IMG/VR virus record: IMGVR_UViG_3300046500_000231
Span: 74,070-113,003 of that record
Length of the DNA: 38,934 bases
Origin: a virus
Taxonomy: Duplodnaviria > Heunggongvirae > Uroviricota > Caudoviricetes
Reading direction: 5' to 3' (one strand)
Below, in pieces: positions 801-34,635 of this stretch. The stretch's first letter is position 1; every line of letters begins with the position of its first letter. The translations under genes and the position numbers were made by a program. The notes beneath the pieces are model-generated. The model saw nothing but the letters and a program-made list of their open reading frames with translations, did not search any database and was not told where the DNA came from.

Positions 801-869
801 TGTCAATACTGACTGAACAAGTGCAATTGTAGAGACGCATTTCAGGGCACGCAACAGTTATTACTGACT
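801..869 (-). promoter_or_regulatory. Leftward sigma70-like promoter for the cobT-like gene, flanked by two imperfect palindromic operators
   Basis: Minus strand TTGCGT (849-854), 17 nt, TACAAT (826-831). TGTCA-ATAC-TGACT at 801-814 and AGTTA-TTAC-TGACT at 856-869, each one mismatch from consensus. Confidence 0.6.
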
Positions 870-880
870 GTTGTTCTGGC

Positions 881-906
881 AAAAAAAACGGCGTCCGAAG
901 ACGCCG
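881..906 (-). terminator. Rho-independent terminator
   Basis: Minus strand CGGCGTC-TTCG-GACGCCG followed by 8 T, just downstream of the 928..1152 gene. Confidence 0.85.
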
Positions 907-927
907 CAAGACTCGCAGGTAAGACTG

Positions 928-1152
928 TTACATGAGCGGGATGAGGGCGGTCGCTCCTGAGTCAGTGCTGATGAGCAAGATGGCTCCCAACGCCGGATGA
1001 ATCATCTTGCTAATCAAGGACGAACCGAGGTCCAGACGCGACACCTGCGACGACTGCTCCAGGTATTCGACGTATTGGTCAGGCTCGATCAGGGCGCCCA
1101 GTTGGGTTGCGGCCGATGCTGCGATGTGTGCTTGCGTGTTACCCGTGTTCAT
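928..1152 (-). CDS. Small hypothetical protein (74 aa), monocistronic, divergent from the XRE gene
   Basis: ORF 928..1212 in the track. ATG 1152 is preferred: it has a GGAG RBS, and the ATG at 1212 lies inside the operator/-10 region. Has its own promoter and terminator. Confidence 0.6.
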   Translation of the reverse strand: MNTGNTQAHIAASAATQLGALIEPDQYVEYLEQSSQVSRLDLGSSLISKMIHPALGAILLISTDSGATALIPLM

Positions 1153-1201
1153 TGAGGGAACTCTCCAGAAACTTTTAAACAGTTTGATGCGTTGCTGAAA
1201 C

Positions 1202-1222
1202 ATTATAGTCATCGCTGACTAT
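1202..1222. promoter_or_regulatory. Perfect palindromic operator AGTCA-TCGC-TGACT overlapping a leftward -10 box
   Basis: ATAGTCATCGCTGACTAT at 1205-1222. Minus-strand TATAAT at 1202-1207. Confidence 0.75.
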
Positions 1223-1309
1223 TGTATGTCGATTAGATGCGTCTTTTTTCATCCACTCGGGATTGCATTCGGTAAAAAAGTGAGTAGAATCCGGCACATA
1301 GGCATTGTC

Positions 1310-1386
1310 AGTCAGCACTGACAACCAGCCCAAATGCGATATCTCCCACCAAGTTCAGTCAGTAGTTATTACTAGCTGACTATAAT
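1310..1386 (+). promoter_or_regulatory. Operator and half-sites plus -10 box upstream of the XRE gene
   Basis: AGTCA-GCAC-TGACA at 1310-1323. Half-sites AGTCA (1357-1361) and TGACT (1377-1381) run into TATAAT (1381-1386). Confidence 0.6.
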
Positions 1387-1436
1387 CGACTCAACAGAAT
1401 ACGCGGGACGTCCCGCACCGATAAGGAGAGAACAAA

Positions 1437-1859
1437 ATGACCACGAAGAAGAAGCCCGAAGCAATGACTGTCGCCGAATACTTCGATGCACAGGTCGCGC
1501 TACGTCAAATGACGCTGGCACAACTGAGCAAGGACATTGGCGGTGTGCTCAAGCCGAACATGCTGTCGATGATTCGCCAGGGGCACTCGAAGCTGCCGTT
1601 GATTCACGTTGGCCGCGTAGCGCGAGCGCTGGGCGTGGACCCGGTGTTCCTGCTGAAGCTGTGCATGAACGAATACCAACCGGAGAACTGGAAGGCGATT
1701 CAAGAAGTTTTCAGCGAACAGCCGATTCTGACGCGCAACGAGATTGCACTGATCAAGGCGATCCGCGACGCGAACCCGAATAACCCGAAGCTGAGCACGA
1801 AGGCCGACGAGCACAAGTTCACGCAAGTCGTCGCGGCGCTGGGCGGCGATAACGAGTGA
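1437..1859 (+). CDS. XRE-family helix-turn-helix regulator, probable phage repressor
   Basis: TLAQLSKDIGGVLKPNMLSMIRQG...RVARALGVDP is a Cro/C1-type HTH. AGGAG RBS and downstream terminator. Confidence 0.85.
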   Translation: MTTKKKPEAMTVAEYFDAQVALRQMTLAQLSKDIGGVLKPNMLSMIRQGHSKLPLIHVGRVARALGVDPVFLLKLCMNEYQPENWKAIQEVFSEQPILTRNEIALIKAIRDANPNNPKLSTKADEHKFTQVVAALGGDNE

Positions 1860-1894
1860 GAAGGCGGTAGTCGGTTTCATAGCAGTTCGGTTGG

Positions 1895-1926
1895 CTTAAA
1901 GAAGCGCCCACGAGGGCGCTTTTTTT
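1895..1926. terminator. Intrinsic terminator, probably bidirectional
   Basis: AAGCGCCC-ACGA-GGGCGCTT at 1902-1921. T-run on the + strand; shorter CTTT tail on the - strand. Confidence 0.85.
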
Positions 1927-1990
1927 ATGGCTGTATTACAGGGGCTTGCGTCGTCGCCTTACTGTGCATTCATACAGTGGCGAGTCAGTG
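1895..1990 (-). ncRNA. Candidate ~95-nt small RNA
   Basis: Minus-strand promoter TTGTCT (2019-2024), 17 nt, TACAAT (1996-2001). 5' hairpin at 1954-1983. Ends at the 1902-1921 hairpin. Only a 4-codon ORF inside. Confidence 0.4.
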
Positions 1991-2069
1991 ATGGAATTGT
2001 ATGAGCCTTGAAGGCGAAAGACAACTGGCAGTTACTTTTTTGTTAAAAAATGTTTGCGAGGTGTTACTT

Positions 2070-2092
2070 AAAAAAGACGGCAAAATTTGCCG
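2070..2092 (-). terminator. Intrinsic terminator of the XRE-PAS gene
   Basis: Minus strand CGGCAAA-T-TTTGCCG followed by TCTTTTTT, directly after the stop at 2094-2096. Confidence 0.7.
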
Positions 2093-2093
2093 G

Positions 2094-2774
2094 TTATTCC
2101 GCCCTTTTGGTCGCTTCGAAGTGCGGACACCTGCTAACGCCTATCAAACGAATCGGTTGACCCCGATCATTGCGGTAAATTTGAAAGACTATCTCCACTT
2201 TGGGACATAATGCGTCCCTTGGTCGCACCAAAAGTGTGGCTCGCTCGGAAGACTCCAACAGGGTGCGATTGTAGAAATCATCAACCAACGGTTTACAATC
2301 ATCAGATAATAAAGCGCGAAAGCTGTCGTGGGACGGGAGGATCTCGGAGGGAGCGTTTAAGTGTCGGCGTGCGGGGTCGTTCCAATAGCACTTCCCTGTT
2401 AGCAGGTCTTCCTCAATGACACCGACGTCCAATAGATTGATAGCGACTGAGAGCCGCTCCTCATTGGCGATGACTTGTTCGACAAACTCTCTGCGGCGCT
2501 GTCCAAAGGTCTCTTGGGATCGTTGTTCTTCTAAGGACCGCAGCGCTGCGTCACCATAGCGTAGCCAAACCCAATTGACGCCAAGATGGTTGGCTACCTT
2601 CTGTAGCACTTCAAAGCCTATGTCCCCACCTTTGAGCCACTTGCCCACAGCTTGGGGAGTCACTGCAATGGCGCGCGCCAGCCCGGCCGCTGTCTCGTGC
2701 CTGTCATCCAAAGACTTTCTTAACCTATCGGGAAAGCCGGAGCCCTTGAAGTGGGCCGGAATTTTAGGTGTCAA
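2094..2774 (-). CDS. One-component regulator: N-terminal XRE HTH plus C-terminal PAS/PAC domain
   Basis: HTH: RLRKSL...TAAGLARAIAVTPQAVGKWLKG...LGVNWVWLRYG. PAS_3-like: NEERLSVAINLLDVGVIEEDLLTGKCYWND. PAC-like end: YRNDRGQPIRLIGV. TTG start with GAGGA RBS. Confidence 0.8.
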   Translation of the reverse strand: MTPKIPAHFKGSGFPDRLRKSLDDRHETAAGLARAIAVTPQAVGKWLKGGDIGFEVLQKVANHLGVNWVWLRYGDAALRSLEEQRSQETFGQRRREFVEQVIANEERLSVAINLLDVGVIEEDLLTGKCYWNDPARRHLNAPSEILPSHDSFRALLSDDCKPLVDDFYNRTLLESSERATLLVRPRDALCPKVEIVFQIYRNDRGQPIRLIGVSRCPHFEATKRAE

Positions 2775-2969
2775 ACTCTGTCCTCTTGATAGTTATTTTC
2801 GAAACGTTGCCAAGCTCTTTTAGGGGTAGTTTGTAACGAATTATATTTGAGGACTGATATCGGTTTAGTTGTAATTGTGCAAAGGTTGCCTTCTTTAGAT
2901 TGATGCACCTATCGTGCAAGTATTGTTGATCCCGAGCATAATGGAAAGCAACCTCGTCATGGACAAAAG

Positions 2970-3021
2970 TTGATACAAAACTTGATAGCTTGATACCAAG
3001 GTATCAACATACCAAGGTATC
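2970..3021. promoter_or_regulatory. Putative par operator / centromere-like repeats
   Basis: TTGATA at 2970, 2982 and 2990. Inverted repeat TTGATACC-AA-GGTATCAA at 2990-3007. ATACCAAGGTATC directly repeated at 2993 and 3009. Lies upstream of parA. Confidence 0.6.
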
Positions 3022-3106
3022 GAACGTGCTGTTCGGCTTGCAATGTTTCTTGTATGAACATCCACTATGGATTACGCTACCGGCAAAACTTCGTATGGAG
3101 AAGGCT

Positions 3107-3778
3107 ATGAAAAAAGCTAGGTCCGTAACTATGGTGGGAACAGAAAAGGGAGGTGTGGGCAAATCTACCTTTACACAAAACTTGGCATCAATCCGGTCGG
3201 GGCAGGGGCGGCGGGTCGCCGTGTTCGATCTGGACGGCCAGAATTCGACGTTCAAGTGGGCTGCCGACCGACGTGAGGCAGGCGGTTTGCCCGAGGTCCA
3301 CGTCAAGCGTATTGCAAAGGGAAAGAAGCTCGACGAGGACGAGTTTGCCGAGGAATTGGGCGAACTGACCGAGGAATATGAGGACGTTTTCATTGACGTC
3401 GGCGGGCAGGACTCGGACGTGTTCCGGTGGGGACTCGCGGTGGCCGATCACGTCGTCGTGCCGCTCATTCCATCGCCCGCGGACCTCAACACCGTGCCCG
3501 ATCTGTTCGATCTGGTCGGCACCTACACCAAGAAAATCCCGATCCAAATCGTGCTCAATCAGGCCGATAAAAGGAAACTGATGACGCAGGCGATGATCGC
3601 TCAGATCGAGCCTTTCGAGCACCGGCTGCCGCGCATGAAGATGCTGGTGGCGGCTCGCGAGAGCTACAAGTTTGCGATGGCGCAGGGCAGGGGAGTGGCG
3701 GAGTTGACTGGCCGGTATTGGGACGCGGCGGCCGCCAACGAGATGAAAGACCTTTATTTGGGAGTGTTCTCGTTATGA
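3107..3778 (+). CDS. parA: ParA partition ATPase (type Ib)
   Basis: Deviant Walker A KGGVGKST, then FDLDGQ, FIDVGG and ADHVVVP. No N-terminal HTH. ATG 3107 has a GGAGAAGG RBS. Confidence 0.93.
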   Translation: MKKARSVTMVGTEKGGVGKSTFTQNLASIRSGQGRRVAVFDLDGQNSTFKWAADRREAGGLPEVHVKRIAKGKKLDEDEFAEELGELTEEYEDVFIDVGGQDSDVFRWGLAVADHVVVPLIPSPADLNTVPDLFDLVGTYTKKIPIQIVLNQADKRKLMTQAMIAQIEPFEHRLPRMKMLVAARESYKFAMAQGRGVAELTGRYWDAAAANEMKDLYLGVFSL

Positions 3779-4128
3779 TCAAATCAGTCATGGGTCCGCC
3801 CCGGCGCAAAAGCGATGAGTTTCGCGAGCAACTGCGGGAGCAGGCCGGCGCCATTGAAGCGTTGCACGAACCAGAGCCCGCAGTCGAACCGGCGGCCGTT
3901 GAGGTGACCGCGCCGGCACGCTCGGGCAAGGGACTCAACCTGCAGGCGATCCGAGCGCAGCAGCCGGCCAAAGAGGTGCCGGTGCAGCAGCCGGTGAGGG
4001 TGCCGCCCTCGCTCAAAGAAGACTTGGATCTGATCTGCTTTGCGCTCAAGAAAACCAAGAACGACTTCATCGTCGAGGCGTTGAAGAAGGAAGTGGCGCG
4101 CGAGAAGAAGCGTCTGGGCTTCGAGTAA
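3775..4128 (+). CDS. ParG-like ribbon-helix-helix partition adaptor
   Basis: ATGA overlap with the parA stop. Flexible N-terminus followed by an RHH-like end (VRVPPSLKEDLDLICFALKKTKNDFIVEALKK). Confidence 0.75.
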   Translation: MIKSVMGPPRRKSDEFREQLREQAGAIEALHEPEPAVEPAAVEVTAPARSGKGLNLQAIRAQQPAKEVPVQQPVRVPPSLKEDLDLICFALKKTKNDFIVEALKKEVAREKKRLGFE

Positions 4129-4172
4129 CCGTCTTCTTGCAGACGCTTTTCGGGTTTTCAGATGCGCCTGGG

Positions 4173-4548: not shown

Positions 4549-4549
4549 C

Positions 4550-5332: not shown

Positions 5333-5356
5333 TGGTCTTCCGCGCACACGCCTTGC

Positions 5357-5391
5357 TTATCCACAGAAAACGTGGATAACCCTGTGGAGCA
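5357..5391. promoter_or_regulatory. DnaA-box cluster downstream of rep
   Basis: TTATCCACA at 5357-5365. Inverted CGTGGATAA (5371-5379) and TGTGGAGCA (5383-5391). Confidence 0.65.
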
Positions 5392-5394
5392 AGC

Positions 5395-5879: not shown

Positions 5880-5884
5880 CGTTG

Positions 5885-6523
5885 CTACATGCGGCCCCAT
5901 CCGAGCGCGGCAGGTCGGCTGTAATGCGGGTTCTTCATTTTGAGCCAGTCGCGTGTGCGGCCGGCGGTGTAGGGCGCATCGAGCCGCTTTGCCATCACAC
6001 CCTCGAGGTCGAGCGTCGCCGCGTGCTGGAACGCGAGTTCCCCATGTTCTTCGACGCCGCCCGTATAGACGATGACCTTCGTGTCCATGAAGCTCTCACG
6101 CAGCATCGCCTTGCGCTCAAGCAGCCGCATGCGTCGCACGTCCTCTCGACCGGAGGCGAGCATATCGAACACGTAGAGCCTGGCTGGCTGTTCACGAGCA
6201 GCAGCGCGCACCCGCAATGGAACCCGAATGCGCGCCCGCTGCTGGAGGAGCTCGAACGACGGCCGCCCATCCGCTTCGTCCACCGTGAGTTCGGCATCCC
6301 ACACGAAACTGCCCGGCACCGCCTCAAGCGCGGCGACGATATCGGGAAACGAGCCGTTCAGCGAGTTGCCGTTGCGGGACACGAGCGCCACCTGATCGCC
6401 ATCCTTGCGCACCAGCGCGCGGTAGCCGTCGTATTTGATTTCGAAGATCCAGCCTTCGCGCGTGAACGGCGCCCGGGCGAGCGTCGCCAGCATCAGATGC
6501 GTATGGTCAATTGGCGGGATCAT
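5885..6523 (-). CDS. Minimal ATP-dependent DNA ligase (LigD/LigC-type adenylation domain only)
   Basis: From ATG 6523: WIFEIKYDGYR (KxDG), DAEL, YVFDML, EGVMAKR and WLKMK. Ends about 15 aa after motif V, with no OB-fold. Confidence 0.85.
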   Translation of the reverse strand: MIPPIDHTHLMLATLARAPFTREGWIFEIKYDGYRALVRKDGDQVALVSRNGNSLNGSFPDIVAALEAVPGSFVWDAELTVDEADGRPSFELLQQRARIRVPLRVRAAAREQPARLYVFDMLASGREDVRRMRLLERKAMLRESFMDTKVIVYTGGVEEHGELAFQHAATLDLEGVMAKRLDAPYTAGRTRDWLKMKNPHYSRPAALGWGRM

Positions 6524-6707
6524 TGACCGCTTCCGGCAGACGAGCACTGACGAAAGCGAGCTTCGCCCAGGCGTTTGTCGGGTCGCAGCCGGAGTAAGCG
6601 CAAAAGTGCTCAAAGTCCTCGAGCACCGTATGACCGCCAGCGTTGCGTTTGAGCACGCGGCCCTCCAGAATGTTCGCAAGCATGGCAGACGGGTCTTTGT
6701 AGCACAT
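6507..6707 (-). CDS. Small hypothetical protein upstream of the minimal ligase
   Basis: ATG 6707 with GGAGG RBS (MCYKDPSAMLANILEGR...). Overlaps the ligase start. Confidence 0.55.
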   Translation of the reverse strand: MCYKDPSAMLANILEGRVLKRNAGGHTVLEDFEHFCAYSGCDPTNAWAKLAFVSARLPEAVNDPAN

Positions 6708-6783
6708 GGCGTCCTCCGCACGGTTACGCTTACTATGAGCAAACTGGATTCCATGCCAGAAAATGCGCCAACCGGGAGGCAGC

Positions 6784-6948
6784 ATGGCAGAGAAATGGAC
6801 CTGCACGCTCTGCGGCTACACAGCCGAGGACATTGAGGAATTCCATGCCGCGCACCATCGGGACGATGGACTCTACATGGAGGAGCCGATCTGTCCGAAC
6901 TGCGGAGCCGAAGATTCGGCAGTTCGTGTCGGCCCGATTCCAGAGTGA
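6784..6948 (+). CDS. Small zinc-ribbon / rubredoxin-like protein
   Basis: MAEKWTCTLCGY...PICPNCGAE has two CxxC pairs. GGGAGG RBS. Confidence 0.7.
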   Translation: MAEKWTCTLCGYTAEDIEEFHAAHHRDDGLYMEEPICPNCGAEDSAVRVGPIPE

Positions 6949-7031
6949 TAATCATTATTATGTCAATCGAGGCATTCGATGACGCGCCGACGTGCCCGCG
7001 CTATCATCGGGAATGATCCAGGGTGACTGAG

Positions 7032-9670: not shown

Positions 9671-10091
9671 GTGCTTTCTCCAAAGCCAGTGTGTTGATTT
9701 GAATTTGTTCGTCGGCGGACAGGTCGAGGCCGACGTGCTTCATCGCGATTGCGCGCATGTCGTTTAAATGCGCGCGTGTCGCTGCCAATGCTGCTTCGTG
9801 TGATTGCGTTGCTTCACCGCTCGATGGACGCAACCCTTGCTTGTAGAGCGCGTCAAACAGCACTTGCGCGGCCTTGTGCGTGAGTGTGAACATCGGTTCG
9901 GGTGGCATCATCTGACCGGTCGGGACGTTCTCGACTTCGACCGTGCCAAGCGGGCGGATCACGCCGACTCCGGTTGGGCCGCGGTAGGAGAGTGCGTGAA
10001 CGTCATATCCGCCCACGCCCATGTTCTCGCGCAGCATTGCCTCCTCGAGCCAGAGGGTCGGCACGGCCTTGATGACGGGCGTGGTGCTCAC
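9651..10091 (-). CDS. Hypothetical phage protein
   Basis: GTG 10091 overlaps the upstream stop; (M)STTPVIKAVPTLWLEE.... Confidence 0.65.
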   Translation of the reverse strand: MSTTPVIKAVPTLWLEEAMLRENMGVGGYDVHALSYRGPTGVGVIRPLGTVEVENVPTGQMMPPEPMFTLTHKAAQVLFDALYKQGLRPSSGEATQSHEAALAATRAHLNDMRAIAMKHVGLDLSADEQIQINTLALEKAHEKATW

Positions 10092-10282
10092 TTCTTCGGC
10101 TCCTCGTGAATGACTTCGCCCAGCGCCGAGTCGATGCGCAGCACCATACCGCCCGGCGGGCACTGAGCGACAGCCTGATAGCGGCGCACATACACCTTCA
10201 CGCCGCTATAGCGCTTGTGCTGCTCGCCTTGCTCGTTGAGCACGATGAAGAGTTCCTTGATGGGGCTTTTGGCGACTTTCAT
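10088..10282 (-). CDS. Hypothetical phage protein
   Basis: 64-aa ORF coupled to the ligase stop. Confidence 0.65.
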   Translation of the reverse strand: MKVAKSPIKELFIVLNEQGEQHKRYSGVKVYVRRYQAVAQCPPGGMVLRIDSALGEVIHEEPKK

Positions 10283-11667
10283 GCCGTCTCCTCGACCTTC
10301 TTGCCGGTGACTGCGTTGGCGCGAGCAGCCAGCACGTCTTCAAGGCTGTCGGCGGCGTATTTGTCGATGCGATACCAGTCTTCGGCCATGCGCGGCAGAA
10401 AGAGGCTATGCAGCGGGTTGCTGTCGGAGGGATACATGACCTCGTTGAAGCGCACCGGCCAAATGCGGTCGAGGAACGCTTCGCGATTCGCGTCGATGGC
10501 ATCGCGCAGCTTTTCGTTTTTCACCGCCACATAAACGCGCAGCTTGTCGTCGCGGGTGCGCATGCCCACGCGCCCTGCCCGGCCTTCGTTCTTCGTGCCT
10601 GCTTCGCCGTCGAGGATCTCGAACGACTCCAGATCGACGTCGATCTCCAGCTTGAGCTTGACCACATCGGGGTTGCCGCTGGAGGTGTCTTTCCAGCCAC
10701 CGTCGCCGTTCTTAATGACCGTGCCTTCCTTGCCTTCGATCTGCAGGCTTGCGCAGTGCGCATAGGCTTCGTCAAGCGAATGAACGACCTTCGTCGGGAT
10801 CAGTCTGACCGCCTGATTGTCACGCCCGTGCAACTGCTGGATCAGTCGTGTAATGCGACGGCGATATGGCGTATCGACCTTACCCTTCGGCACCGCCGCT
10901 TCGAGCGGGATTTGATCCCACGCATAGAACACCGGCAATTCATTTGCCGCGAAACTCCCGCCGGCAAGCACACTGTTCAGAATGCCGTTACCGGTGGCAC
11001 GGTCCGCAATCACGCCGTCGATAAGCACGACGATTTCGCCGTGTGTTTGCGTGCCCTTGTTGAACGTCTCGCGGATTTCGGCTTCCATCTCCGGGAAAGC
11101 CTCGATCGGCAGTTCATTACCCTGGCGCGTGGTCAGACGCACGATACCTGCGTTGTCGTGGTCGACGTTCGTGAAGGCGCCGTCAGCCTTGTGCTGACTG
11201 AAGACACCCTCTTCCCACGTCCACTTGTCGAACTTAGCCTTCTCCGGCAGCACGCAGCGCATATAGGGGAACGCGCGAATCGTGCCCTTCTTCGCCTTGT
11301 TGGCGGTTTCCGCCGAGAAGCCTGCGCGCAGGTCTTTCTTGATGATTCGCCAGAAGAGTTCGGATGATTCCGGCTCCAGGCGAATCATTTCGCCCGTGAC
11401 AGCCATGATCGCGTTGTTGCCGGTCACGCGGCGCTCTGCCAGATCAGCGATGAGACGCCAGGTGCCATCGTCAAACAGTTCGTCGCCGATCGCGCCTGCG
11501 ACCGGGCGCTTGCTGATGCCGTAGCTCACGAGCGGGTCGAGTGAGGCGACGAGCACGCGCTCAAAGTCGGCGTCGACGAGATAGGCGGAGACGAGCGCCT
11601 GCTTGTCGTTCTTGCTGCTGGTTCTGGCGATCAGGTCGATCACCTGAAAAATGTCCTTCGAGTTCAT
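10279..11667 (-). CDS. lig: Phage ATP-dependent DNA ligase (full length)
   Basis: SQHKADG (KxDG), THGEIV, FYAWDQI, EGKEGTVIKN and VKLK, with an N-terminal helical domain and a C-terminal OB-like region. Confidence 0.9.
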   Translation of the reverse strand: MNSKDIFQVIDLIARTSSKNDKQALVSAYLVDADFERVLVASLDPLVSYGISKRPVAGAIGDELFDDGTWRLIADLAERRVTGNNAIMAVTGEMIRLEPESSELFWRIIKKDLRAGFSAETANKAKKGTIRAFPYMRCVLPEKAKFDKWTWEEGVFSQHKADGAFTNVDHDNAGIVRLTTRQGNELPIEAFPEMEAEIRETFNKGTQTHGEIVVLIDGVIADRATGNGILNSVLAGGSFAANELPVFYAWDQIPLEAAVPKGKVDTPYRRRITRLIQQLHGRDNQAVRLIPTKVVHSLDEAYAHCASLQIEGKEGTVIKNGDGGWKDTSSGNPDVVKLKLEIDVDLESFEILDGEAGTKNEGRAGRVGMRTRDDKLRVYVAVKNEKLRDAIDANREAFLDRIWPVRFNEVMYPSDSNPLHSLFLPRMAEDWYRIDKYAADSLEDVLAARANAVTGKKVEETA

Positions 11668-13197: not shown

Positions 13198-13218
13198 AGT
13201 ATAGTCAGTAATGACTAT
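13198..13218. promoter_or_regulatory. Perfect operator AGTCA-GTAA-TGACT with leftward -10-like TATACT
   Basis: Operator at 13203-13216. The 22-mer TATAGTCAGTAATGACTATTGC is identical to 17099-17120. Confidence 0.75.
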
Positions 13219-13233: not shown

Positions 13234-14310
13234 TTAACGCCCCTTCGTGAGTCTCATGCGCGTCGCAGTCAGCGGATTGATGGTGGTGGCTTTCCAGAAG
13301 GCGTCGCGCACGACAGACGGCGGCACTTCGTTGGGATCGCGCCCTTCCGGGAGCACCGCCACGCGCGCAGTCAGCCCGATCGATTTCACCTTCAGCGCCG
13401 CCTCAATGGCCGCGTCGATCGCTTTGGGTTCGCCATCCCACATGAACGTAACCGCCTCCAGCCCGCGCTCCCTGAGCGTGGCGAGCTTTGCCATCTGCGA
13501 GGCGTCGTCGCCGTGCGAGAGGTGCTTGCCGAAGCTGCCCACCGGCACCACGTCGCGCAGTTCCGCCTGCTCATCGAGCGCGATCTTGGTGGCGGCGACG
13601 TCGAACACCCCTTCGCCGATCACGATGTGCTTGGCGTTGAGCGCGTTCTGGCCGTTGTAGAGGACCGAGCCCGTCGAGGCGAAGCCCGGCGGGAACAGGT
13701 ATTTCTTGTCCGCCTCGCCGGTGGTGTCGCGCCCCTGGAAGGTCACGAGGTCGCCCTCGAGGTCGAAGACGGGAATGATCACGCGATGGGCGTAGTTCTG
13801 CGCACGCGTTTTGCCGTCATCATCCTTGTAGAAGAACTTGCCGTCGAGCGAGAAGCGCAGATGGAAGTATTGAGCGATGCGCGCCGTGATGTTGCGGTTG
13901 TCCAGATACTTGAGGTTGCGCCCGTTGTGCGGCAGCGCGATCGACTTCGGCAGCTTCAGTTCCGTGTCCAGGTTCACCGCGACGGCGACTTTCTTCTTCG
14001 GCCGCCAGCCTTGCGTGCGCGCAAATGAGGTGATGTGGTCGATCACCTCACGATTGCTGTCCATGCCAAGCTGCGCCCGAATGAGCGTGAACTTGTTGAA
14101 CTTTTCTTCGCACACGAAGCAGTTGCCAAGACCCGTCTCCAGCCCTACGTAGACTTTCCAGCTTGAATTGCCGCAGCATGGGCACTCCTTGATATTGGCC
14201 TGGCGACCGCGAGCCCCACGAGTCTGCTTATAGGCGATACCCTGGTCATCGAGCCAATATTCAATATCGAGGCTCTCAAGCGCCTCTTGCAAATCGCCTC
14301 GATCGTTCAC
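13234..14310 (-). CDS. DNA primase (Zn finger plus TOPRIM)
   Basis: CPCC...CFVC zinc finger, FQGRD, GEGVFD and MWDGE. GTG at 14310 (or 14313) overlaps the HNH stop. Confidence 0.88.
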   Translation of the reverse strand: MNDRGDLQEALESLDIEYWLDDQGIAYKQTRGARGRQANIKECPCCGNSSWKVYVGLETGLGNCFVCEEKFNKFTLIRAQLGMDSNREVIDHITSFARTQGWRPKKKVAVAVNLDTELKLPKSIALPHNGRNLKYLDNRNITARIAQYFHLRFSLDGKFFYKDDDGKTRAQNYAHRVIIPVFDLEGDLVTFQGRDTTGEADKKYLFPPGFASTGSVLYNGQNALNAKHIVIGEGVFDVAATKIALDEQAELRDVVPVGSFGKHLSHGDDASQMAKLATLRERGLEAVTFMWDGEPKAIDAAIEAALKVKSIGLTARVAVLPEGRDPNEVPPSVVRDAFWKATTINPLTATRMRLTKGR

Positions 14311-14825
14311 CACGTCGCCCCTCGCTTAATTTTGCTCACAGTCGCTTGCGTGACGTCATGTGCGGCCGCAATAAGGCGCTGCAGCTCTCCTTCCGCGAGC
14401 CGACGACGAATATCGGCCACCGCTTCTTCGTTCAACTTGGCAGACGGATTTCTCTCGCCCTTCGGGTCCGTTCCGTGCAGTGCGCGATCCATCGCATTCT
14501 CGAGGCGCGTGCCATACCGGAGATTGCTCAGGACGTTGTTACCCTTGTTGCCGTCACCGTGACACACCTCAAGCCCTTCAGGGCACGGGCCTTCGAAGGT
14601 GAGCATTACGAGAATATGGACGGCCCACACCTTCTGGCCGTTGTTATGCAGCGTAACCATGTGATAGTTCCAGCTATTCGGCGCGGCCTTTAGAACCCTG
14701 CCCGCCTGCAATCTGTGACCGCCGTGCCACAGTCGTTGCATACGGTCGAGACTTCTAATTCTCCCGAGATTGGACGCTTGATAAAGCCCTTCATACCCCG
14801 GAATGTCGCGCCATTCTTCGATCAT
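14307..14825 (-). mobile_element. Free-standing NUMOD4-HNH homing endonuclease
   Basis: EEWRDIPGYEGLYQASNLGRIRS (NUMOD4), VHILV and CHGDGNKGNNVLSNL (HNH). Confidence 0.9.
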
Positions 14826-17096: not shown

Positions 17097-17124
17097 ATTA
17101 TAGTCAGTAATGACTATTGCTCAA
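17097..17124 (-). promoter_or_regulatory. Leftward promoter with a perfect operator in the spacer
   Basis: TTGAGC (17119-17124), 16 nt, TATAAT (17097-17102). AGTCA-GTAA-TGACT at 17102-17115. Confidence 0.75.
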
Positions 17125-18829: not shown

Positions 18830-18850
18830 ATTATATAGTCAGTTCTGACT
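18830..18850. promoter_or_regulatory. Perfect operator AGTCA-GTTC-TGACT with leftward TATAAT
   Basis: Operator at 18837-18850. Minus-strand TATAAT at 18830-18835, upstream of phoH. Confidence 0.75.
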
Positions 18851-22058: not shown

Positions 22059-22100
22059 ATGATAAGTCAGTTCTGACTGTTTAGCCAGTCAAATCTGACT
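22059..22100. promoter_or_regulatory. Tandem perfect operators upstream of the lysis cassette
   Basis: AGTCA-GTTC-TGACT at 22065-22078 and AGTCA-AATC-TGACT at 22087-22100. Minus-strand TATCAT at 22059-22064. Confidence 0.75.
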
Positions 22101-22456: not shown

Positions 22457-22500
22457 GTAGAACTCCAGTTGAGGGGTTGAATAGTCAGTTCTGAGTGTAA

Positions 22501-27954: not shown

Positions 27955-27984
27955 ATTATACAGTCAGAACTGACTGTTATCCAA
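27955..27984 (-). promoter_or_regulatory. Internal promoter with a perfect operator upstream of the tail fibre
   Basis: TTGGAT (27979-27984), 18 nt, TATAAT (27955-27960). AGTCA-GAAC-TGACT at 27962-27975. Confidence 0.7.
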
Positions 27985-27985
27985 C

Positions 27986-28557: not shown

Positions 28558-31500
28558 CGGAGGCATTCAAGAACAGTAAGAGTCATGACGGTGCCCGTGC
28601 CAGTCGAGCCCGAAATGGTGTGATTGCCCGCGCCCAGATAGCCGCACCAGGTCACCGCACCGCTACCGCTGCCACCGAAGTTGCCATCGATGTTGATATC
28701 GCAGTAGTCGGCGTTGGCGTTACCAATGATCAGGCAGATGCCGCCCCTGGACCCGTAGGTAAATTGCGCGAAGGTGGCGCTCGAGGTCGTCACCATCGTC
28801 GTCACGGCGTTACCGGCGATGCGCAGCGTGTCGATCTGGGCGGTGCCGATGTGGGCGGTCAGAATATTGGCCGACGCGATCTTGGCCGCCGTGATCTGCG
28901 CATCACCGATCTTGGCGTTGTCGATCGAGGCGTCGCCAATGAGCGCGTTGCTGATGATCACGCGCGGCGTGCCATAGACCGCACCGATGGTGAACGGGCG
29001 CACGCTCGAATAGCCCGGCAGCACCACCGAGAAGGTGTCGCTGCGCACAATGAATTCCGAGCGCGGCGCACCGTTGACGACTGTCGAGGCGAGGCCAAAC
29101 CCCGTCACGTAGCCGTTGTTGTCGACCTTGACCGTGTATTGCGCGCTCAGCCCATTGATCGAGCTTGTTTGCTGGCTAATGGTCGTGGTATGGCTGCCAA
29201 CGGTCGTCGTGAGGTTCGTGATCGACGTCGCGTTCGCCTGGTCGCCCGCAACCCGCGCGTTCGTCTCGGTCTGCACGTTCGCGTTGGTCGTGCCCAGCGA
29301 CGCGTTGACGCTATCAATGCGCGTCGAAAGCGCGCTGTCGGCCGCAGCAAGCGCGGTCTGCGCGGTGCTGATTGCCGCCATTGCCGGCTGCACCTGGTTC
29401 ATCGGGCGCCATTCGACGTCCGTGAAATACCAGCGGTTGTTTTCGTCGGTGCCGCTGATGCCGATGTTCGTCCACAGCGTCAACTGGTTCACGCCCGCGG
29501 GCACCGTCACCGAGCCGGAGATACGCGTCCAGGTGGTCGTCGCCGTCTGCGTGGCGGCAGCCAGATAGCTCACCGTGCCCGAGGGCGTGCTGAACTTCGC
29601 GCCGATCTTGAACGCGGCGGCCGCCACGGGCGAGGCGCAGTAGCACTCGAAGTAGTGCTGCTGGCCGGGCGACACGTCCACCGTGCGGCCCGAGAAGAAG
29701 TTGTCCTTCGTGTTCTGCTTGAACACGTTCAGCGACGGCGCGCCCGTGGGCACATCGCTTAGTGCCTTGGATACGACCGTCACCGCGCTCCAGCCCGTCG
29801 TGCCATTGTTCGCCACGGGATTTGCACACAGATTCGTCGCATCAAAGCCGAAGCTCGCGGCAACCGTGTTGATCTGTGTGGCAAGCGCGGAGTCGGCTGC
29901 GGTGCGGGCTGCCGCTTCGGTCTGCACGGCGGCGGTGTTATTGCCCGTGTTGGCCGAAACCGTGTCGATGCGGGTGGAGAGCGCATTGTCCGCGCTCGTG
30001 CGGGCGGTGGCCTCGCTCGTGATGGCCGCAGTGTTGGACGCGGTGCTCGCCACTACCGTGTCGATGCGAGTCGAGAGCGCCCCGTCTGCATTGGCGCGCG
30101 CCGTCTGTTCGGACTGAATCGCCGCGGCGTTGCCGCTGTTGCTCGCCACCACCGTATCGATGCGCGAGGACAGCGAGCCGTCGGCGGCCACGCGCGAGGT
30201 TTGCTCGGTCGTGATCGCCGCCGTGTTCGTGGCAATCGCTGTGTTGAGCACGTCCTTGGCGGTGTTGATGCGCTCGTTGACCGAACCGATGATCGAGGGC
30301 GGCGCGTCCACCAGGTTGATGCGCGTTTGCAGGCCCGGAATGAGCTGGCTGTCCTTGAGCACGCCGTCGGCGATCGCCGCGACGTCCATGTAGGTCGTGC
30401 GGGCGTGAAACTCCTGCGTCGGGATCGTCTCGTCCAGACCGAACGCGTCATACGGGACGATGGTGAAGTAATAGTCCGAGTTGAACATCAGGTTGGTGAG
30501 CAACACTGATGTGTCCGGGCCATCGTAGGCAGGCGTGGTCGAGATTTCGAGGTCGCCCGACCAGCGCAGGAAGATTTGCGCGCCCGCGTAGTCGGTGTCT
30601 TCGGTGTGGTTGAAGTTCACCTGCAGACGGTCAAACGACGAGCTCGTGGTGACCGCCGTCACCTGCGGCGGCGGGTTGTAGGCATCGAGCACCGCCGGGC
30701 TGCCGACATTGTTGAAAATGTCGCGCACGGCAATTTCGAAGGTCAGGCGCCGGTGCGTGCCGTCGGCGACGTTCTTCTCGTAGGTGTAGATATACGAGTT
30801 GTCGGTCGTGTGTTCGGTGCGCAGGAGCTTGCCGTCATGGTCCTTGACGCGCACCTCGTAGTCCTGGAAGTGGGCGTCGCGCGTGCCCGAGTCGGCGCCG
30901 TTGGGCTCGCTGCCGAATTCGAAGCTCGCGGTGGTGGCGTTGTAGTTCCAGAAAACCTTGCAGTCGCGCCCCGCCCAGATGAAGTCCGCGCCCGAGACGT
31001 CGGCGACCTGAATGTTGCCGACATAGCCCACTACCGTGTAGCTCATGGAGGGCGCGTTGTCATACGAGGCGCGCTTGCCCCAGAGGTCGTAGGCGACCAC
31101 TTTGACGACGAGCTTGTCGCCGGCGCTCGCGCCCGCAACCACGTAGCTCGTGGCCGCCTGCACGCTCTGGCGCAGGGTCATCGCCCCGCCATTGACCGAG
31201 ACGTAGACGTCCGCGCCCGCATACGAGCCCACCTGCGGGGTGTTCCACGCCGCGCGCACGTCCGAGAGGATCTGCGTGCCGGCGACGTAGGTTTCCTCAT
31301 ACACGGAGAGCGACTGCACCTGCGAGATCGCCGCGGCTTCGGCCGGCAGCGTCGGGGCGACGAGCGTGGAGGTGACGTCCGCGTAGCTGGAGAGGTCGTA
31401 GACCGCCGGGTTGTATTCGAGCGCGGTGATGTGGCGATTCAGGCTCGAAGTCGCAAGCGTGATCGACTTGATGCGAAACGGCTTCTTGACCTTGGTCGCT

Positions 31501-34250
31501 TCACCGAACATGTAGTTGGTGAACTGCTCGGGCGCGTAGCCGATCGCGTTCTTGAGCGTGATGGTGTCGCTGGTGCCCTCGACCGTCACCACGTCCGCAT
31601 CGGTCACCACGTCCGTGTCAAAGAGCGTGACCATCTGGCCGGCAGCAAAGCCCGTGATATCGTCGACGTAGACGCCATCGGGCACGATCGACAGAATCGC
31701 GGTCTCCTGCCCGCCGGCGGCGCGAATGCGGTTCACGCGCACGGCCGAATTGACGCCGCCTGCGATCTGCACGAAGTTGCCGATCACGCTTTGCACTACG
31801 GGCGTTGCGCGCACGACATAGTTCGTGAGCAGCAGCACCTTGTAGTTCGCGCCCGCGACCATCGTGACGGGCTTGTCGAGCTTGAGCACGCTTGCGGTGG
31901 AGCCCACTTCGAGACGTCCCGACTGCGCCCAGGCCGGCATGTCATGCTGCACCAGCACCACGTCGCCCGGCGTGCAGGCAATCGCCTCCACCGGCGCCTC
32001 GAAATCCACCGTCTGGGTGAGGTAGCGGTTCAGGTTGAGCTGGAACGCGCCTTCCTTGTAGGCGGTGGTGATGTTGTCCACGCCGTAGAGCGTGATAGCC
32101 GAGACGTTTTGCGCATTGCCCGCGAGCGCGAGCGTCGGGTCGGTGACCTTGACCGTGTGGGCGCGGTTGTTGTCCGTCTTGTCGTAATAGGTGACGTCGA
32201 TTTCGGTGGCGCGGTCCTTCTGCCCGAGCCACGTCATCTTGAACGTGTCCTTGATGATGTTGCCCATGCCGAACATCATCACGGGGTCCGCCGGCGCCTC
32301 GGTCGTCACGTAATAGCGCGTGCCGACCTGGATCACCTGAGCGTGGCCCACGCGCAGAATGAGCGCGGAGGCATCCCAGAAATTCATCACCTGATCGAGC
32401 GGGCCGTTCCAGGTGAGGCCAGCCGAGTCGCAATACGCCGCCCACGCATAGATCGAGTCCATGTCCAGGCGTGCGATATCGAGCCCCGCGCCGTAGATCG
32501 GGTTGGTGGCCGCGTCGAGCCAGATCCACGCCGGGTTGGTCGAGGGCAACTGCGCGGTCATGGTCGTGCCGTCGGTGCGGCTGTAGACCGTGATGAGCTT
32601 GCCGCCGTGCTGAAACGACACGCTCGGGATGCCCGAGAGCTGGTCGTCCATCTGCACCCGCAAGGCCAAAAGCGCCGTGTGGTTGTAGGCGACGCCATCG
32701 AAGGTGATTTCGTTCAGGTCCGCGAGAAAGGTGTCGGAGGCCGCGGAGTCGGACGTGTCAGTCGGAAAGGACGTGAGCACGCCGTTGCCCGACGGATCGT
32801 AGGTCTGGATCGCGTAGTTGACGTCGCGGCGCACCCGAATCTCGTATTTGCCGAGCGCGAGTTGCGGCGAGGCGAAGCTGCGGCGCACGGTGGAGCGCAG
32901 GTTGTCGGTGATGTGCAGCGCGGTCGCCGTGCCCGTGTGCTGCACGGTCAGCGAGACGGCGGTGGCATCGCTCATCGAAATTGAGCCCGGCCAGGCCGCG
33001 AGCGGCCGCCCCACGTAGCCGCCGTATTTGTTGTAGGCGTTCGACACATCGGTCGCATCGCCATTGGCACCCGTTTGCGCATCCGACACCGTGAGCCCGC
33101 CGATCACTTCCGTGCCGGTGTAGCCCTCGCGCGAAAACACGGTCGCGCCATTAACGATCGGATAGACGTTGACGGTCTTGTAGGTGCTGGTCGTGGTGGA
33201 GCCCATCGGAATCCAGTCACCGGTGCTGCCAAGCGGGCGGTAGTCCACGTCGAGCGAGACGGAGTTCGCCTTGAAGGCGCCCGATTTCTGATCGACCGTA
33301 TAGAGGCCTGCCGGACAGGTGAAGTCCAGACGGAACTGCTCGACGTCCGAGAGCGTGGAGACCGTGATGTAGTCGCCGTTGGAGGGAAGCTGGACGTTCT
33401 TGCTAACGGGGCTGATTACCTTGCTGAACCAGTCGATCGGCGCTTGCGTGGCGTAGCCCAGGCGCGTTTGCACCGTGACGTTGGCGAATTCGTTGATCGG
33501 ACGATCGTTCAGGCGCACGTCGGAGATCGAGGCAATCGGCCCCTCCCCGGCGTTGATCAACATGTAGAGGAACTGGTTGTTGCCGTTCAAGGCAGCATCC
33601 GAGCCACTCATGTTGTTCTCGGTATACATGCCGATGATGTTGCCGGCCGTGCGAAAGCCGTTGCCGTAGATCACCGGCACGGGCACGCCTTCAGCGCTCG
33701 TGTTCTTGGCCCCGTCCGCCCCGTAGGAGGCGGAATTGGACATGTCCGAGCCCGAATTGGTCGCAGTCGGCGGGGGCAGCAGCGCGTTGACGAGCAGCGA
33801 GCCCGCCACCGTCACGGCAACGGCCACCGCGCCCTGCACGATCGCAGCGCCCGTGGCAGCGGAGACGCCAAGCGTGGCGCCCATTGCTGCGCCGTAGGCG
33901 GCGGCTGCCGCACCTGCTGTCACCACCGAGGCGACCGCCACCGCGATCATGGCGACGATGCGGAAGATGCCCTTGCCGCCACCACCACGCGGGATCGGGC
34001 ACATCACCACGTAGTCGTCGGGCTGCAGGTAGGTCTTGGCGAGCTCAGCCGGCGCGATGATGCCGCCATTGACAGAGATGACGTGATCCTCCAGCGACAG
34101 CACCTTGGGCAGATACGCCGCGAGCGACTTGTTCTTGCGATAGGCCCACTGCTCGACCTCGACCGCGCGAAGCGGCTCAAACGGGTTGGTGACCCGGCGA
34201 GCGGTGACGAACTTCTTGGCGCGGGGCTTACGAGGCTTGGCAGTATTCAT
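28554..34250 (-). CDS. Tail tip / host-specificity protein J fused to an N-terminal lambda-I-like module
   Basis: Ubiquitin-like start ending PRGGGGKGIFRIVAMIAV, then VPVPVIYG, EGPIASI, NPAWIWLD, FN3-like domains and a DUF1983-like AQYTVKVDNNGYVTGFGL segment. ATG 34250 is preferred to 34292. Confidence 0.9.
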   Translation of the reverse strand: MNTAKPRKPRAKKFVTARRVTNPFEPLRAVEVEQWAYRKNKSLAAYLPKVLSLEDHVISVNGGIIAPAELAKTYLQPDDYVVMCPIPRGGGGKGIFRIVAMIAVAVASVVTAGAAAAAYGAAMGATLGVSAATGAAIVQGAVAVAVTVAGSLLVNALLPPPTATNSGSDMSNSASYGADGAKNTSAEGVPVPVIYGNGFRTAGNIIGMYTENNMSGSDAALNGNNQFLYMLINAGEGPIASISDVRLNDRPINEFANVTVQTRLGYATQAPIDWFSKVISPVSKNVQLPSNGDYITVSTLSDVEQFRLDFTCPAGLYTVDQKSGAFKANSVSLDVDYRPLGSTGDWIPMGSTTTSTYKTVNVYPIVNGATVFSREGYTGTEVIGGLTVSDAQTGANGDATDVSNAYNKYGGYVGRPLAAWPGSISMSDATAVSLTVQHTGTATALHITDNLRSTVRRSFASPQLALGKYEIRVRRDVNYAIQTYDPSGNGVLTSFPTDTSDSAASDTFLADLNEITFDGVAYNHTALLALRVQMDDQLSGIPSVSFQHGGKLITVYSRTDGTTMTAQLPSTNPAWIWLDAATNPIYGAGLDIARLDMDSIYAWAAYCDSAGLTWNGPLDQVMNFWDASALILRVGHAQVIQVGTRYYVTTEAPADPVMMFGMGNIIKDTFKMTWLGQKDRATEIDVTYYDKTDNNRAHTVKVTDPTLALAGNAQNVSAITLYGVDNITTAYKEGAFQLNLNRYLTQTVDFEAPVEAIACTPGDVVLVQHDMPAWAQSGRLEVGSTASVLKLDKPVTMVAGANYKVLLLTNYVVRATPVVQSVIGNFVQIAGGVNSAVRVNRIRAAGGQETAILSIVPDGVYVDDITGFAAGQMVTLFDTDVVTDADVVTVEGTSDTITLKNAIGYAPEQFTNYMFGEATKVKKPFRIKSITLATSSLNRHITALEYNPAVYDLSSYADVTSTLVAPTLPAEAAAISQVQSLSVYEETYVAGTQILSDVRAAWNTPQVGSYAGADVYVSVNGGAMTLRQSVQAATSYVVAGASAGDKLVVKVVAYDLWGKRASYDNAPSMSYTVVGYVGNIQVADVSGADFIWAGRDCKVFWNYNATTASFEFGSEPNGADSGTRDAHFQDYEVRVKDHDGKLLRTEHTTDNSYIYTYEKNVADGTHRRLTFEIAVRDIFNNVGSPAVLDAYNPPPQVTAVTTSSSFDRLQVNFNHTEDTDYAGAQIFLRWSGDLEISTTPAYDGPDTSVLLTNLMFNSDYYFTIVPYDAFGLDETIPTQEFHARTTYMDVAAIADGVLKDSQLIPGLQTRINLVDAPPSIIGSVNERINTAKDVLNTAIATNTAAITTEQTSRVAADGSLSSRIDTVVASNSGNAAAIQSEQTARANADGALSTRIDTVVASTASNTAAITSEATARTSADNALSTRIDTVSANTGNNTAAVQTEAAARTAADSALATQINTVAASFGFDATNLCANPVANNGTTGWSAVTVVSKALSDVPTGAPSLNVFKQNTKDNFFSGRTVDVSPGQQHYFECYCASPVAAAAFKIGAKFSTPSGTVSYLAAATQTATTTWTRISGSVTVPAGVNQLTLWTNIGISGTDENNRWYFTDVEWRPMNQVQPAMAAISTAQTALAAADSALSTRIDSVNASLGTTNANVQTETNARVAGDQANATSITNLTTTVGSHTTTISQQTSSINGLSAQYTVKVDNNGYVTGFGLASTVVNGAPRSEFIVRSDTFSVVLPGYSSVRPFTIGAVYGTPRVIISNALIGDASIDNAKIGDAQITAAKIASANILTAHIGTAQIDTLRIAGNAVTTMVTTSSATFAQFTYGSRGGICLIIGNANADYCDINIDGNFGGSGSGAVTWCGYLGAGNHTISGSTGTGTVMTLTVLECLR
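29853..30218 (-). repeat. Four 32-aa coiled-coil repeats in J
   Basis: AITTEQTSRVAADGSLSSRIDTVVASNSGNAA, then AIQSEQTARANADGALSTRIDTVV..., and so on. Confidence 0.85.
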
Positions 34251-34608
34251 AAAATCCGACGATCCGTTGCTTCCAGTGGTCGAGACGCTCAATCACCACA
34301 CCCCCGGATTGCTCCCAGGTGTGAATAAAGCGAGAGTCAGGAATGACTATCCCGCAGTGCGCAATAAAGCGCCCTGTCTTGAACATGACGAGCGTGCCCT
34401 CCTTGGGGTGCTCGATGCGCTTCCAGAACTCACGCGAACCCACCATCAGCGCGTGAATCATCCCCGCATCTTCCGGCGCCCCGTAGTCGGGTGGCGTCAC
34501 ACCCGTATCGCGCGCGATGATGTAGCGGCACAGGCCATAACAGTCGAAACTGTCAGGGCCGCGGCCGCCGCGCTCGAAGGGAATGCCGATCAGTTCAGTG
34601 TTCGTCAT
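34228..34608 (-). CDS. Tail assembly protein K (NlpC/P60)
   Basis: GRGPDSFDCYGL and AHCGIV motifs. Confidence 0.88.
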   Translation of the reverse strand: MTNTELIGIPFERGGRGPDSFDCYGLCRYIIARDTGVTPPDYGAPEDAGMIHALMVGSREFWKRIEHPKEGTLVMFKTGRFIAHCGIVIPDSRFIHTWEQSGGVVIERLDHWKQRIVGFYEYCQAS

Positions 34609-34635
34609 GGTGGATAGTCAGAATTGCCTGTTATT

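Follow-up and report, generated by a model that had tools for sequence, protein, structure and literature searches.

The 38,934-nucleotide stretch of virus DNA analyzed here (the window) comprises bases 74070–113003, the last 38.9 kb, of one 113,003-bp virus record (61% G+C), IMG/VR record IMGVR_UViG_3300046500_000231. All seven sequencing runs that contain the stretch are rhizosphere metagenome DNA. The minus strand of the window encodes DNA ligase, primase, an HNH protein, the helicase DnaB, PhoH, a metallophosphoesterase, a lysis cassette, tail-fibre genes and very large tail proteins; the window also encodes ParA, a Rep3 initiator and a toxin–antitoxin-like pair. The replicon is a phage-plasmid of the SSU5/RHEph10/nickie supergroup, as judged from its DnaB matches and shared gene order. 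The present analysis concerns a 14-bp palindrome, AGTCA-N4-TGACT, which recurs throughout the replicon mostly in the short gaps ahead of genes, and a regulator of the XRE family encoded at 1437–1859 (hereafter XRE), which is the best candidate for the protein that reads it.

The window contains eight perfect copies of AGTCA-N4-TGACT compared with a mean of 0.03 and a maximum of 1 in shuffled sequences, and 13 copies (eight perfect and five with one mismatch) compared with 0.71 expected when one mismatch is allowed. A preliminary description of the window, made from the letters of the sequence, had put the chance expectation for perfect copies at about 0.04, in agreement with the shuffles, and its coordinates for all 13 copies are exact (Table 1). 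It had also named the copy at 34335 as the only perfect one away from a gene boundary, and this copy indeed lies inside an open reading frame (ORF). A scan of the whole 113-kb replicon and its relatives, which the same description had proposed as a check, finds 29 perfect copies here and 20, 22 and 27 in complete relatives. With at most one mismatch, the count in the replicon rises to 48. AGTCA-N4-TGACT is by far the most over-represented palindrome of the 5-Nx-5 type in the replicon, with 29 copies compared with 0.05 expected.

The sites are concentrated between genes. By crude longest-ORF calls, 90% of the replicon is coding and about 133 of 165 genes are on the minus strand. The roughly 10% of the replicon DNA outside ORFs contains at least 39 of the 48 sites: 32 overlap no ORF and 7 overlap just the arbitrary 5′ extension of a longest-ORF call, while 9 are within ORFs. 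Some operators form tandem pairs 22–33 bp apart. In the window, the site at 17102 stands in front of an operon with a gene for a protein of 160 amino acids (aa), DnaB helicase, HNH and primase; the tandem pair at 22065 and 22087 heads the lysis cassette (116-aa gene, endolysin and spanin); and the site at 27962 precedes a 1466-aa tail-fibre gene and a tail-fibre assembly gene. The site at 22483 is intergenic if the 111-aa gene next to it begins at 22457, where an ATG is served by a GGAG ribosome-binding site.

In gene direction, the sites of this genome follow the consensus AA(C/T)-AGTCA-(A/G)AAC-TGACT-A and stand in a fixed relation to −10 boxes. The boxes that the preliminary description had noted beside the palindromes (TATAAT at 1202, 17097, 18830 and 27955, and TATACT at 13198) are real, and all are on the minus strand, the coding strand for the genes downstream of them; the TATAAT at 1381 is likewise real and lies on the plus strand ahead of the XRE gene. 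Over the 48 sites of the genome, the final T of the palindrome (+13) is also the first base of a TAnnnT hexamer in 13 cases compared with 2 in a mirror control, and in 7 cases compared with none the hexamer starts 2 nt further downstream (+15). If these hexamers are −10 boxes, the palindrome would span about −25 to −12. A second register is found at exactly +36, where five sites carry TAnnnT compared with none in the mirror control, placing the centre of the palindrome at −41.5. Matches to a −35 box at the right distance are weakly enriched, with a mean best match of 3.1 of 6 positions compared with 2.5 of 6 in controls (P about 0.02). A neutral sigma-70 scan of the gene (minus) strand between 12 and 31 kb called just two full promoters, those at 17102 and 27962, and the palindrome occupies the spacer of both; the same scan called no full promoter in the immunity/control region.

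Some copies are 7–13 nt from the ATG that follows, immediately precede a ribosome-binding site or fall within ORFs; in these positions they cannot form part of a promoter for the next gene. The one-mismatch copy at 34616 is too near its ATG to leave room for a promoter serving that start codon, and no −10-like box was seen adjacent to the copy at 34335. Among the 19 one-mismatch copies of the genome, 17 break a potential base pair, 2 give a G–U pair and none is compensated. The arms are thus kept as sequence and not as structure, which favours recognition of double-stranded DNA over an RNA hairpin.

Table 1. Operator sites, promoter elements and associated genes in the window (aa, amino acids).
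Feature	Position	Strand	Remarks
CobT-like protein gene	1–779	minus	ATG at 779
One-mismatch operator	801–814		21 nt before the CobT-like ATG (779), downstream of the putative −10
Weak promoter-like pair, CobT-like gene	TTGCGT 849–854, TACAAT 826–831	minus	17-nt spacer; own reading, 8/12 matches
One-mismatch operator	856–869		directly upstream of the weak minus-strand promoter-like pair for the CobT-like gene
Intrinsic terminator	888–907		after the 74-aa gene
74-aa gene	928–1152	minus	first in leftward operon; GGAGAG ribosome-binding site; hydrophobic C-terminus
Perfect operator	1207–1220		fused to minus-strand TATAAT 1202–1207; leftward promoter pointing away from the XRE gene
One-mismatch operator	1310–1323		between the divergent XRE gene and leftward operon; minus-strand GACAAT directly after
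XRE promoter region	1357–1386	plus	TATAAT −10 at 1381–1386 fused to TGACT half-site 1377–1381
Degenerate operator, two mismatches	1357–1370		centre near −29.5 of the XRE promoter
XRE-family regulator, 140 aa	1437–1859	plus	N-terminal 434-Cro-like helix-turn-helix and helical C-terminal dimerisation domain
Second XRE-type protein (XRE-PAS), 226 aa	2094–2774	minus	HTH_3 26 bits; longer C-terminal part
Perfect operator	13203–13216		fused to minus-strand TATACT 13198–13203; heads operon reaching DNA ligase (10279–11667)
Perfect operator	17102–17115		in spacer of sigma-70-like promoter TTGAGC, 16 nt, TATAAT (17097–17102, minus); 10/12 matches, neutral scan
Perfect operator	18837–18850		minus-strand TATAAT 18830–18835 begins 2 nt past the palindrome; ahead of PhoH-like gene
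Tandem perfect operators	22065–22078 and 22087–22100		centres 22 bp apart; proximal one fused to minus-strand TATCAT 22059–22064
One-mismatch operator	22483–22496		25 nt before ATG 22457 of the 111-aa gene
Perfect operator	27962–27975		in spacer of sigma-70-like promoter TGGATA, 17 nt, TATAAT 27955–27960 (minus); 10/12 matches
Perfect copy	34335–34348		in 3′ end of 126-aa ORF, 42 nt before longest start of the 1912-aa gene
One-mismatch copy	34616–34629		7 nt before ATG 34608

The perfect operator at 1207 belongs to a lytic-direction promoter divergent from the XRE gene, and the sites at 801, 856 and 1310 and the degenerate one at 1357 are also nearby, an arrangement that looks like the layout of a cI/cro-type switch. 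At the XRE promoter, where one TGACT half-site is fused to the TATAAT, the second half-site is displaced. In one relative (L001), a one-mismatch site is found 11 nt before a TATAAT at the position matching the degenerate operator. The presence of this operator at the XRE promoter suggests weak negative autoregulation. The promoter-like pair ahead of the CobT-like gene is below the threshold of the neutral sigma-70 scan. The 74-aa gene of the leftward operon is kept adjacent to the XRE gene in relatives. It was considered as a Cro-like partner and rejected, since a family search with its product gave no match and the protein has a hydrophobic tail, so that it is probably not DNA-binding.

The sequence and predicted structure of XRE agree with a role as a dimeric DNA-binding protein. 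It scores 22.2 bits (E 1.5e-4) with Pfam HTH_3, just missing the curated cut-off of 23, and a profile of 36 XRE homologues compared with PDB sequences finds an “immunity repressor” (8bny, E 4e-4) as the best match and 434 Cro with E 0.016. The AlphaFold model (predicted local distance difference test, pLDDT, 90) has an N-terminal domain of five helices that superposes on 434 Cro, the 434 repressor and P22 c2. In Foldseek, the root-mean-square deviation is 1.7 Å over 65 residues with 28% identity for 2cro, and 1.6–1.9 Å over 64–67 residues for the range 2cro, 3cro, 1sq8 and 2r1j, which identifies the five-helix 434-Cro-like fold. The recognition helix is about P40–R47, preceded by K39, and in the alignment to 434 Cro the residues K39-P40-N41 fall at the start of that helix. 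A homodimer model scores 0.58 compared with 0.00 for the best control. In the calibration, this mark was attained by 20 of the 30 proteins whose solved structure is a pair of one chain and by 1 of the 23 whose structure is a single chain, although helix-turn-helix (HTH) dimers are common among solved structures and the pass may partly reflect likeness to them. The two-copy runs agree in at least 91% of contacts, with a partner pLDDT of at least 83, and the modelled interface is formed by residues 83–140, leaving the HTH domains free. Neither Pfam nor the model reveals an S24 peptidase or LexA-type autocleavage domain, and in its absence induction would not go via RecA-mediated self-cleavage.

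The relationship between the palindrome and XRE was surveyed in 80 CobS-centred loci from IMG/VR together with the complete sequences or large parts of RHEph10, nickie, Klebsiella pJN2-26 and B1VFA. The best phage matches of DnaB, at 38–45% identity, are Pseudomonas phage nickie, Rhizobium RHEph10-like phages, Stenotrophomonas phages and SSU5-like phage-plasmids; a megablast search with 25 kb found no close phage DNA relative, its sole match being 449 bp of a Burkholderia plasmid stability locus. AGTCA-N4-TGACT ranks first among the palindromes in most of the 80 loci, which range from 41 to 65% GC, down to about 50% CobS identity. Where XRE has K-P-N or R-P-N at the start of the recognition helix, GTCA-N4-TGAC occurs in all of 47 loci, with 283 sites in 971 kb, compared with 20 sites in 457 kb in the 17 loci with other helix types; the chance level is 0.015 per kb. 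Three genomes with other helix types carry a changed palindrome. The N-P-N protein of Klebsiella pJN2-26, a genome without the phage sigma-factor gene discussed below, is accompanied by GGTAA-N4-TTACC, with 15 sites of the GTAA-N4-TTAC type; that of Rhizobium B1VFA, which has the sigma gene, by TAAGTAA-N4-TTACTTA (7 sites in 40 kb); and the Q-S-N protein of RHEph10 by A(A/G)TCA-N4-TGA(C/T)T in 19 copies. In the CobS tree there are six departures from K or R, each with fewer GTCA sites than its K/R sisters, and B1VFA and RHEph10 are sisters of K-P-N phages that retain GTCA. The design is preserved along with the altered sequence in pJN2-26 and RHEph10, where TAnnnT directly follows the palindrome at +14; no gene-side enrichment of TAnnnT was seen in the same count for B1VFA, which has been described as a possible prophage-plasmid (PMC12509600).

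Lineages without XRE point in the same direction. No dispersed palindrome of this kind was found in nickie, L042 or L047, and nickieviruses are reported to be lytic and to lack lysogeny genes (PMC8537276). In a comparison of four genomes, XRE and one 133-aa virion-region protein are the only ones common to the three palindrome-bearing phages and absent from nickie. Taken together, the association of helix and motif and the phyletic pattern from profile searches for both XRE and the phage sigma factor in all loci indicate that the motif follows XRE and not the sigma factor. The preliminary description had named this XRE as most likely the one repressor behind the dispersed site. One regulator with one dispersed site, and XRE as that regulator, are supported by the covariation, the absence of sites in XRE-less relatives, the sites at XRE's own gene, the Cro-like fold and the predicted dimer. 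The other protein it had proposed for binding assays, XRE-PAS, is a poor candidate, being found only in close relatives and having a different recognition helix.

These comparisons make XRE a well-supported candidate for the binder of the palindrome, and we consider it probable that the palindrome is its operator and that XRE is a P1-C1-like repressor which maintains the plasmid prophage by acting at the lytic units. According to this model, XRE would be a homodimer whose 434-Cro/CI-type HTH domains are joined by the helical C-terminal domain, each half reading one AGTCA arm of an operator with the extended form AA(C/T)-AGTCA-N4-TGACT-A in gene direction. About 45 such sites would serve the lytic units from short gaps ahead of them, including the units for replication, PhoH, lysis, tail fibres and virion and the operon of CobT, CobS, sigma and Pol III. 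The site mostly lies over about −25 to −12 and overlaps the first base of the −10 box, so that a bound dimer would exclude RNA polymerase. Like P1 C1, XRE would thereby act directly on each lytic unit to silence it, and would regulate its own gene via the weaker sites at its own promoter.

Master repression and a role in lysogeny are proposed here from the arrangement of the sites, and given that XRE binds, repression is its likely effect. We infer repression from the promoter geometry, the divergent cI/cro-like layout and the dispensability of the system in a lytic relative, in which the same set of genes operates in the absence of both protein and sites. Tandem operators also favour repression, and copies without a promoter to activate are better explained by a blocking protein than by an activator. 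The preliminary description had stated that replication, PhoH, lysis and tail-fibre genes are silenced directly; the placement of the sites agrees with this, and silencing is the probable direction of regulation. Its exclusion of a cascade was too strong, as the replicon encodes a protein of the sigma-70 family outside the window, and a second layer of temporal control through this phage sigma seems likely.

The sigma-70-family gene (215 aa, minus strand) occupies positions 70900–71547 of the genome (10900–11547 of locus L007) and starts directly after the CobS stop codon. Its product is 26% identical to RHEph10 gp045 (Pfam Sigma70_r2), the gene is present in 65 of 84 related loci, and in RHEph10 the sigma-70-family gene likewise follows CobS.

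Several observations weigh against the repressor model. Good −10 boxes are mostly accompanied by poor −35 boxes, and the immunity region lacks a called full promoter. A strong −10 with a poor −35 is the architecture of activator-dependent promoters, such as the late promoters of P1 (PMC10695390). A repressor has no need of so strict a register between palindrome and −10 box, and an operator unchanged across so wide a family is unusual for an immunity repressor; a plausible explanation of the latter is that dozens of sites would have to change together with the protein. The covariation also has gaps, as no clear GTAA motif was found in 12–17 kb of the other N-P-N loci (L057, L063, L084 and L085), and no clear palindrome in loci of 12–21 kb representing the remaining helix classes (S-P-N, other N-P-N, S-Q-N and T-P-N). 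Three groups of relatives (L018–L022, L056 and L035) keep sites without an XRE gene between ligase and CobT; their contigs are just 28–68% complete and the gene may lie elsewhere. Among site-bearing records without XRE at the usual place, it was found elsewhere in the complete record G004 and was not found in four fragments. Lastly, the largest site-free gap, 11.9 kb over the plasmid module, is not significant (P 0.24), and an operator-free plasmid module was for that reason dropped as evidence.

The same XRE dimer could instead be an activator or a dual regulator, replacing the −35 contact at promoters that have only a −10 box, like Lpa at the late promoters of P1, an alternative that we regard as rather unlikely. 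In a variant, XRE would be an activator at a minority of promoters, from about −41.5, and a repressor elsewhere, in the manner of controller C-proteins or lambda CI. Besides the good −10 and poor −35 boxes and an operator sequence frozen family-wide, as for a core transcription component, the exact register at +13 to +15 and the second sharp register at +36 speak for activation, and the fold matches include the activators or dual regulators ClgR and C.BclI. On the other hand, the site overlaps the −10 box and the region contacted by sigma, a position that usually blocks polymerase. The +36 register is found at 45 of 166 sites across the family, but this peak mostly reflects one orthologous site ahead of CobS, within a larger conserved palindrome, and not independent promoters, and a family-wide class II register was consequently discarded. 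Lytic nickie runs the same gene set with neither protein nor palindrome, the sites right before start codons or in ORFs have no promoter to activate, the XRE gene is part of a plasmid-maintenance module and divergent from the lytic-direction promoter, and the site at XRE's own promoter is in a different geometry, with its centre near −29.5.

We also advance, tentatively and as an unlikely reading, that XRE could be, in place of a classical immunity repressor, a core transcription switch of the whole family, with two registers and an operator unchanged in phages whose hosts range from 41 to 65% GC, working together with the phage sigma. Centred at about −18.5, it would substitute for the −35 contact or act as a gate on the −10 box, and centred at −41.5 it would be a class-II-type activator. 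Some 45 sites would freeze its specificity, which would change only in rare jumps of the whole regulon, from GTCA to GTAA or ATCA.

It is improbable that another dimeric protein, a host factor or a phage protein such as XRE-PAS, binds the palindrome and that the link with XRE is a phylogenetic coincidence. Shared ancestry partly confounds helix type with motif class, and some contigs have sites without the XRE gene at its usual place. However, N-P-N is paired with GTAA in each of two distant lineages, and a single clade of Rhizobium phages contains three motif classes. A shared host factor is unlikely with hosts of 41–65% GC, XRE-PAS is limited to about seven close relatives, and only XRE and the 133-aa virion-region protein fit the four-genome pattern with respect to nickie.

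The idea that the phage's own sigma-70-family factor, and not XRE, reads the motif as part of a promoter was raised by the RHEph10 sigma gene and its homologue here. Motif and sigma gene initially co-occurred, and both are missing from nickie and Klebsiella pJN2-26. The idea was dropped on the phyletic pattern and on B1VFA, and we consider it very improbable: sigma-positive B1VFA, RHEph10 and L057 changed or lost the motif, sigma-negative L051, L073 and L080 retain it, sigma-less pJN2-26 has the same design of a palindrome beside the −10 box with a different sequence, and the perfect two-fold symmetry with arms 4 nt apart is unlike the recognition of −35 and −10 boxes by a single sigma factor. 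An RNA hairpin (a processing site, a translational operator or the target of a phage Hfq-like protein) is hardly credible either, for although the palindrome folds at −6.4 to −8.5 kcal/mol with flanking pairs, several copies precede ribosome-binding sites and some cap longer inverted repeats in which the outer arms co-vary from one relative to another, any palindrome folds and such energies carry no weight, the arms are conserved in sequence with pairing broken as described above, most copies precede the −10 box, so that a transcript from that promoter would not include them, and the changes in the half-sites track the DNA-binding helix.

Further structures accompany some sites of the genome outside the window. 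The sites at 6257, 50600 and 51952 are followed by G+C-rich hairpins with runs of T 10–30 nt downstream, which resemble terminators; short transcripts or attenuators may exist downstream of these operator-bearing promoters. In the gap between CobT and CobS, at 72843, the core palindrome is the centre of a larger inverted repeat of about 40 bp with orthologues near position 9900 of loci L011–L090. The outer arms of this repeat vary between relatives yet stay complementary; TATCAT follows the core palindrome at exactly +36, and after it comes a conserved CTGTCGCAGCAA box. We take it to be a probable conserved control element.

Other dispersed repeats were encountered in relatives. Klebsiella pJN2-26 (L094, L095 and L006) has a second palindrome, AAACAA-N-TTGTTT, in 14 copies compared with 0.12 expected, usually located between a GATAAT-like box and the ribosome-binding site and distinct from the 20-bp ATAGGTAAGTACTTACCTAT sites that abut −10 boxes. 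TCAGT-N4-ACTGA, the reversed pattern used as a control, occurs 21 times in G006 (L068) and 12 times in G010 (L051), both of the R-P-N class, where it is a second real dispersed palindrome; it is not enriched in the present genome. Nickie (L004 and L005) contains TCGA-N8-TCGA 34 times in 100 kb compared with 1.3 expected, and TCGA-N5-TCGA 19 times, which may reflect codon usage or methylation.

Two matches to ATP-dependent DNA ligase occur in the window. The one at 10279–11667 (minus) is a full-length phage ligase (phrog_114), and the other, at 5885–6955 (minus) in the plasmid module, is a 356-aa ORF of which only the C-terminal half matches the ligase adenylation domain. The HNH gene (14307–14825, minus) is of the homing-endonuclease type and is inserted between the primase and helicase genes; its third-position GC of 0.65 is below that of its neighbours.

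In the literature, we found no description of lysis–lysogeny control in SSU5-type and related phage-plasmids of about 110 kb and no paper on these motifs or this regulator in this phage group, and a search with the motif strings gave no phage-relevant result. What is new here is the family-wide survey, the covariation that assigns the XRE protein and the exclusion of the sigma factor. For a large and mostly uncultivated phage family, a candidate master regulator is put forward together with its operator, and operators are predicted for cultivable relatives: GGTAA-N4-TTACC in pJN2-26, TAAGTAA-N4-TTACTTA in B1VFA and AATCA-N4-TGATT in RHEph10. These three natural changes of specificity can serve directly to test which residues of the helix recognise which bases. 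The case also illustrates how the specificity of a repressor is constrained in its evolution by a regulon of dozens of operators, and the sites are of practical use as markers of transcription units in these genomes.

The nearest known design is that of P1, in which one repressor, C1, has many scattered operators in a plasmid prophage (PMC8198154). The present replicon is similar in size to P1, also a plasmid prophage of about 100 kb, and its dispersed operators (48 sites in 113 kb) are likewise at or near the promoters of separate transcription units. The 17-bp operators of C1 are asymmetric, and C1 itself is of another protein family and is not known to have a LexA-type autocleavage domain. 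Here, in contrast, 14-bp palindromes are combined with a protein of Cro-like fold, so that neither the asymmetric 17-bp site nor the C1 family is found (C1 being compared by its description). The late promoters of P1 are not known to be under C1 and need Lpa, whereas here the late genes for lysis and tail fibres bear the same site as the early genes. P1's Lpa promoters offer a second likeness, a short inverted repeat dispersed ahead of many lytic operons; the Lpa repeat adjoins a sigma-70 −10 box at promoters without a good −35, with its centre at about −22. Lpa, however, activates late genes only, while the repeat described here heads early replication operons as well, is 14 bp long, overlaps with the −10 box and is linked to an XRE protein encoded in a plasmid-maintenance/accessory cluster.

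With 434 Cro, the 434 repressor and P22 c2, XRE shares the DNA-binding fold (26–28% identity to 434 Cro), a 14-bp two-fold symmetric operator for a dimer, with binding predicted in our case, and a divergent switch region. Phages of the 434/P22 type have few operators in one or two control regions and use antitermination cascades. They differ in this from the present system with its approximately 45 operators genome-wide, and the C-terminal domain of XRE is unrelated to the S24 peptidase domain of CI-type repressors. In Cluster A mycobacteriophage L5, one immunity repressor, gp71, has some 20–30 stoperators in short intergenic gaps throughout the genome, and the combination of one regulator with many sites in such gaps is common to both systems. 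Stoperators are asymmetric and orientation-dependent and mainly block elongation, unlike the symmetric sites found here, which mostly overlap promoters upstream of the −10 box; the minority of sites just before start codons could nevertheless act as roadblocks. The system is thus an analogue of the P1 C1 and L5 gp71 designs and not a member of those families.

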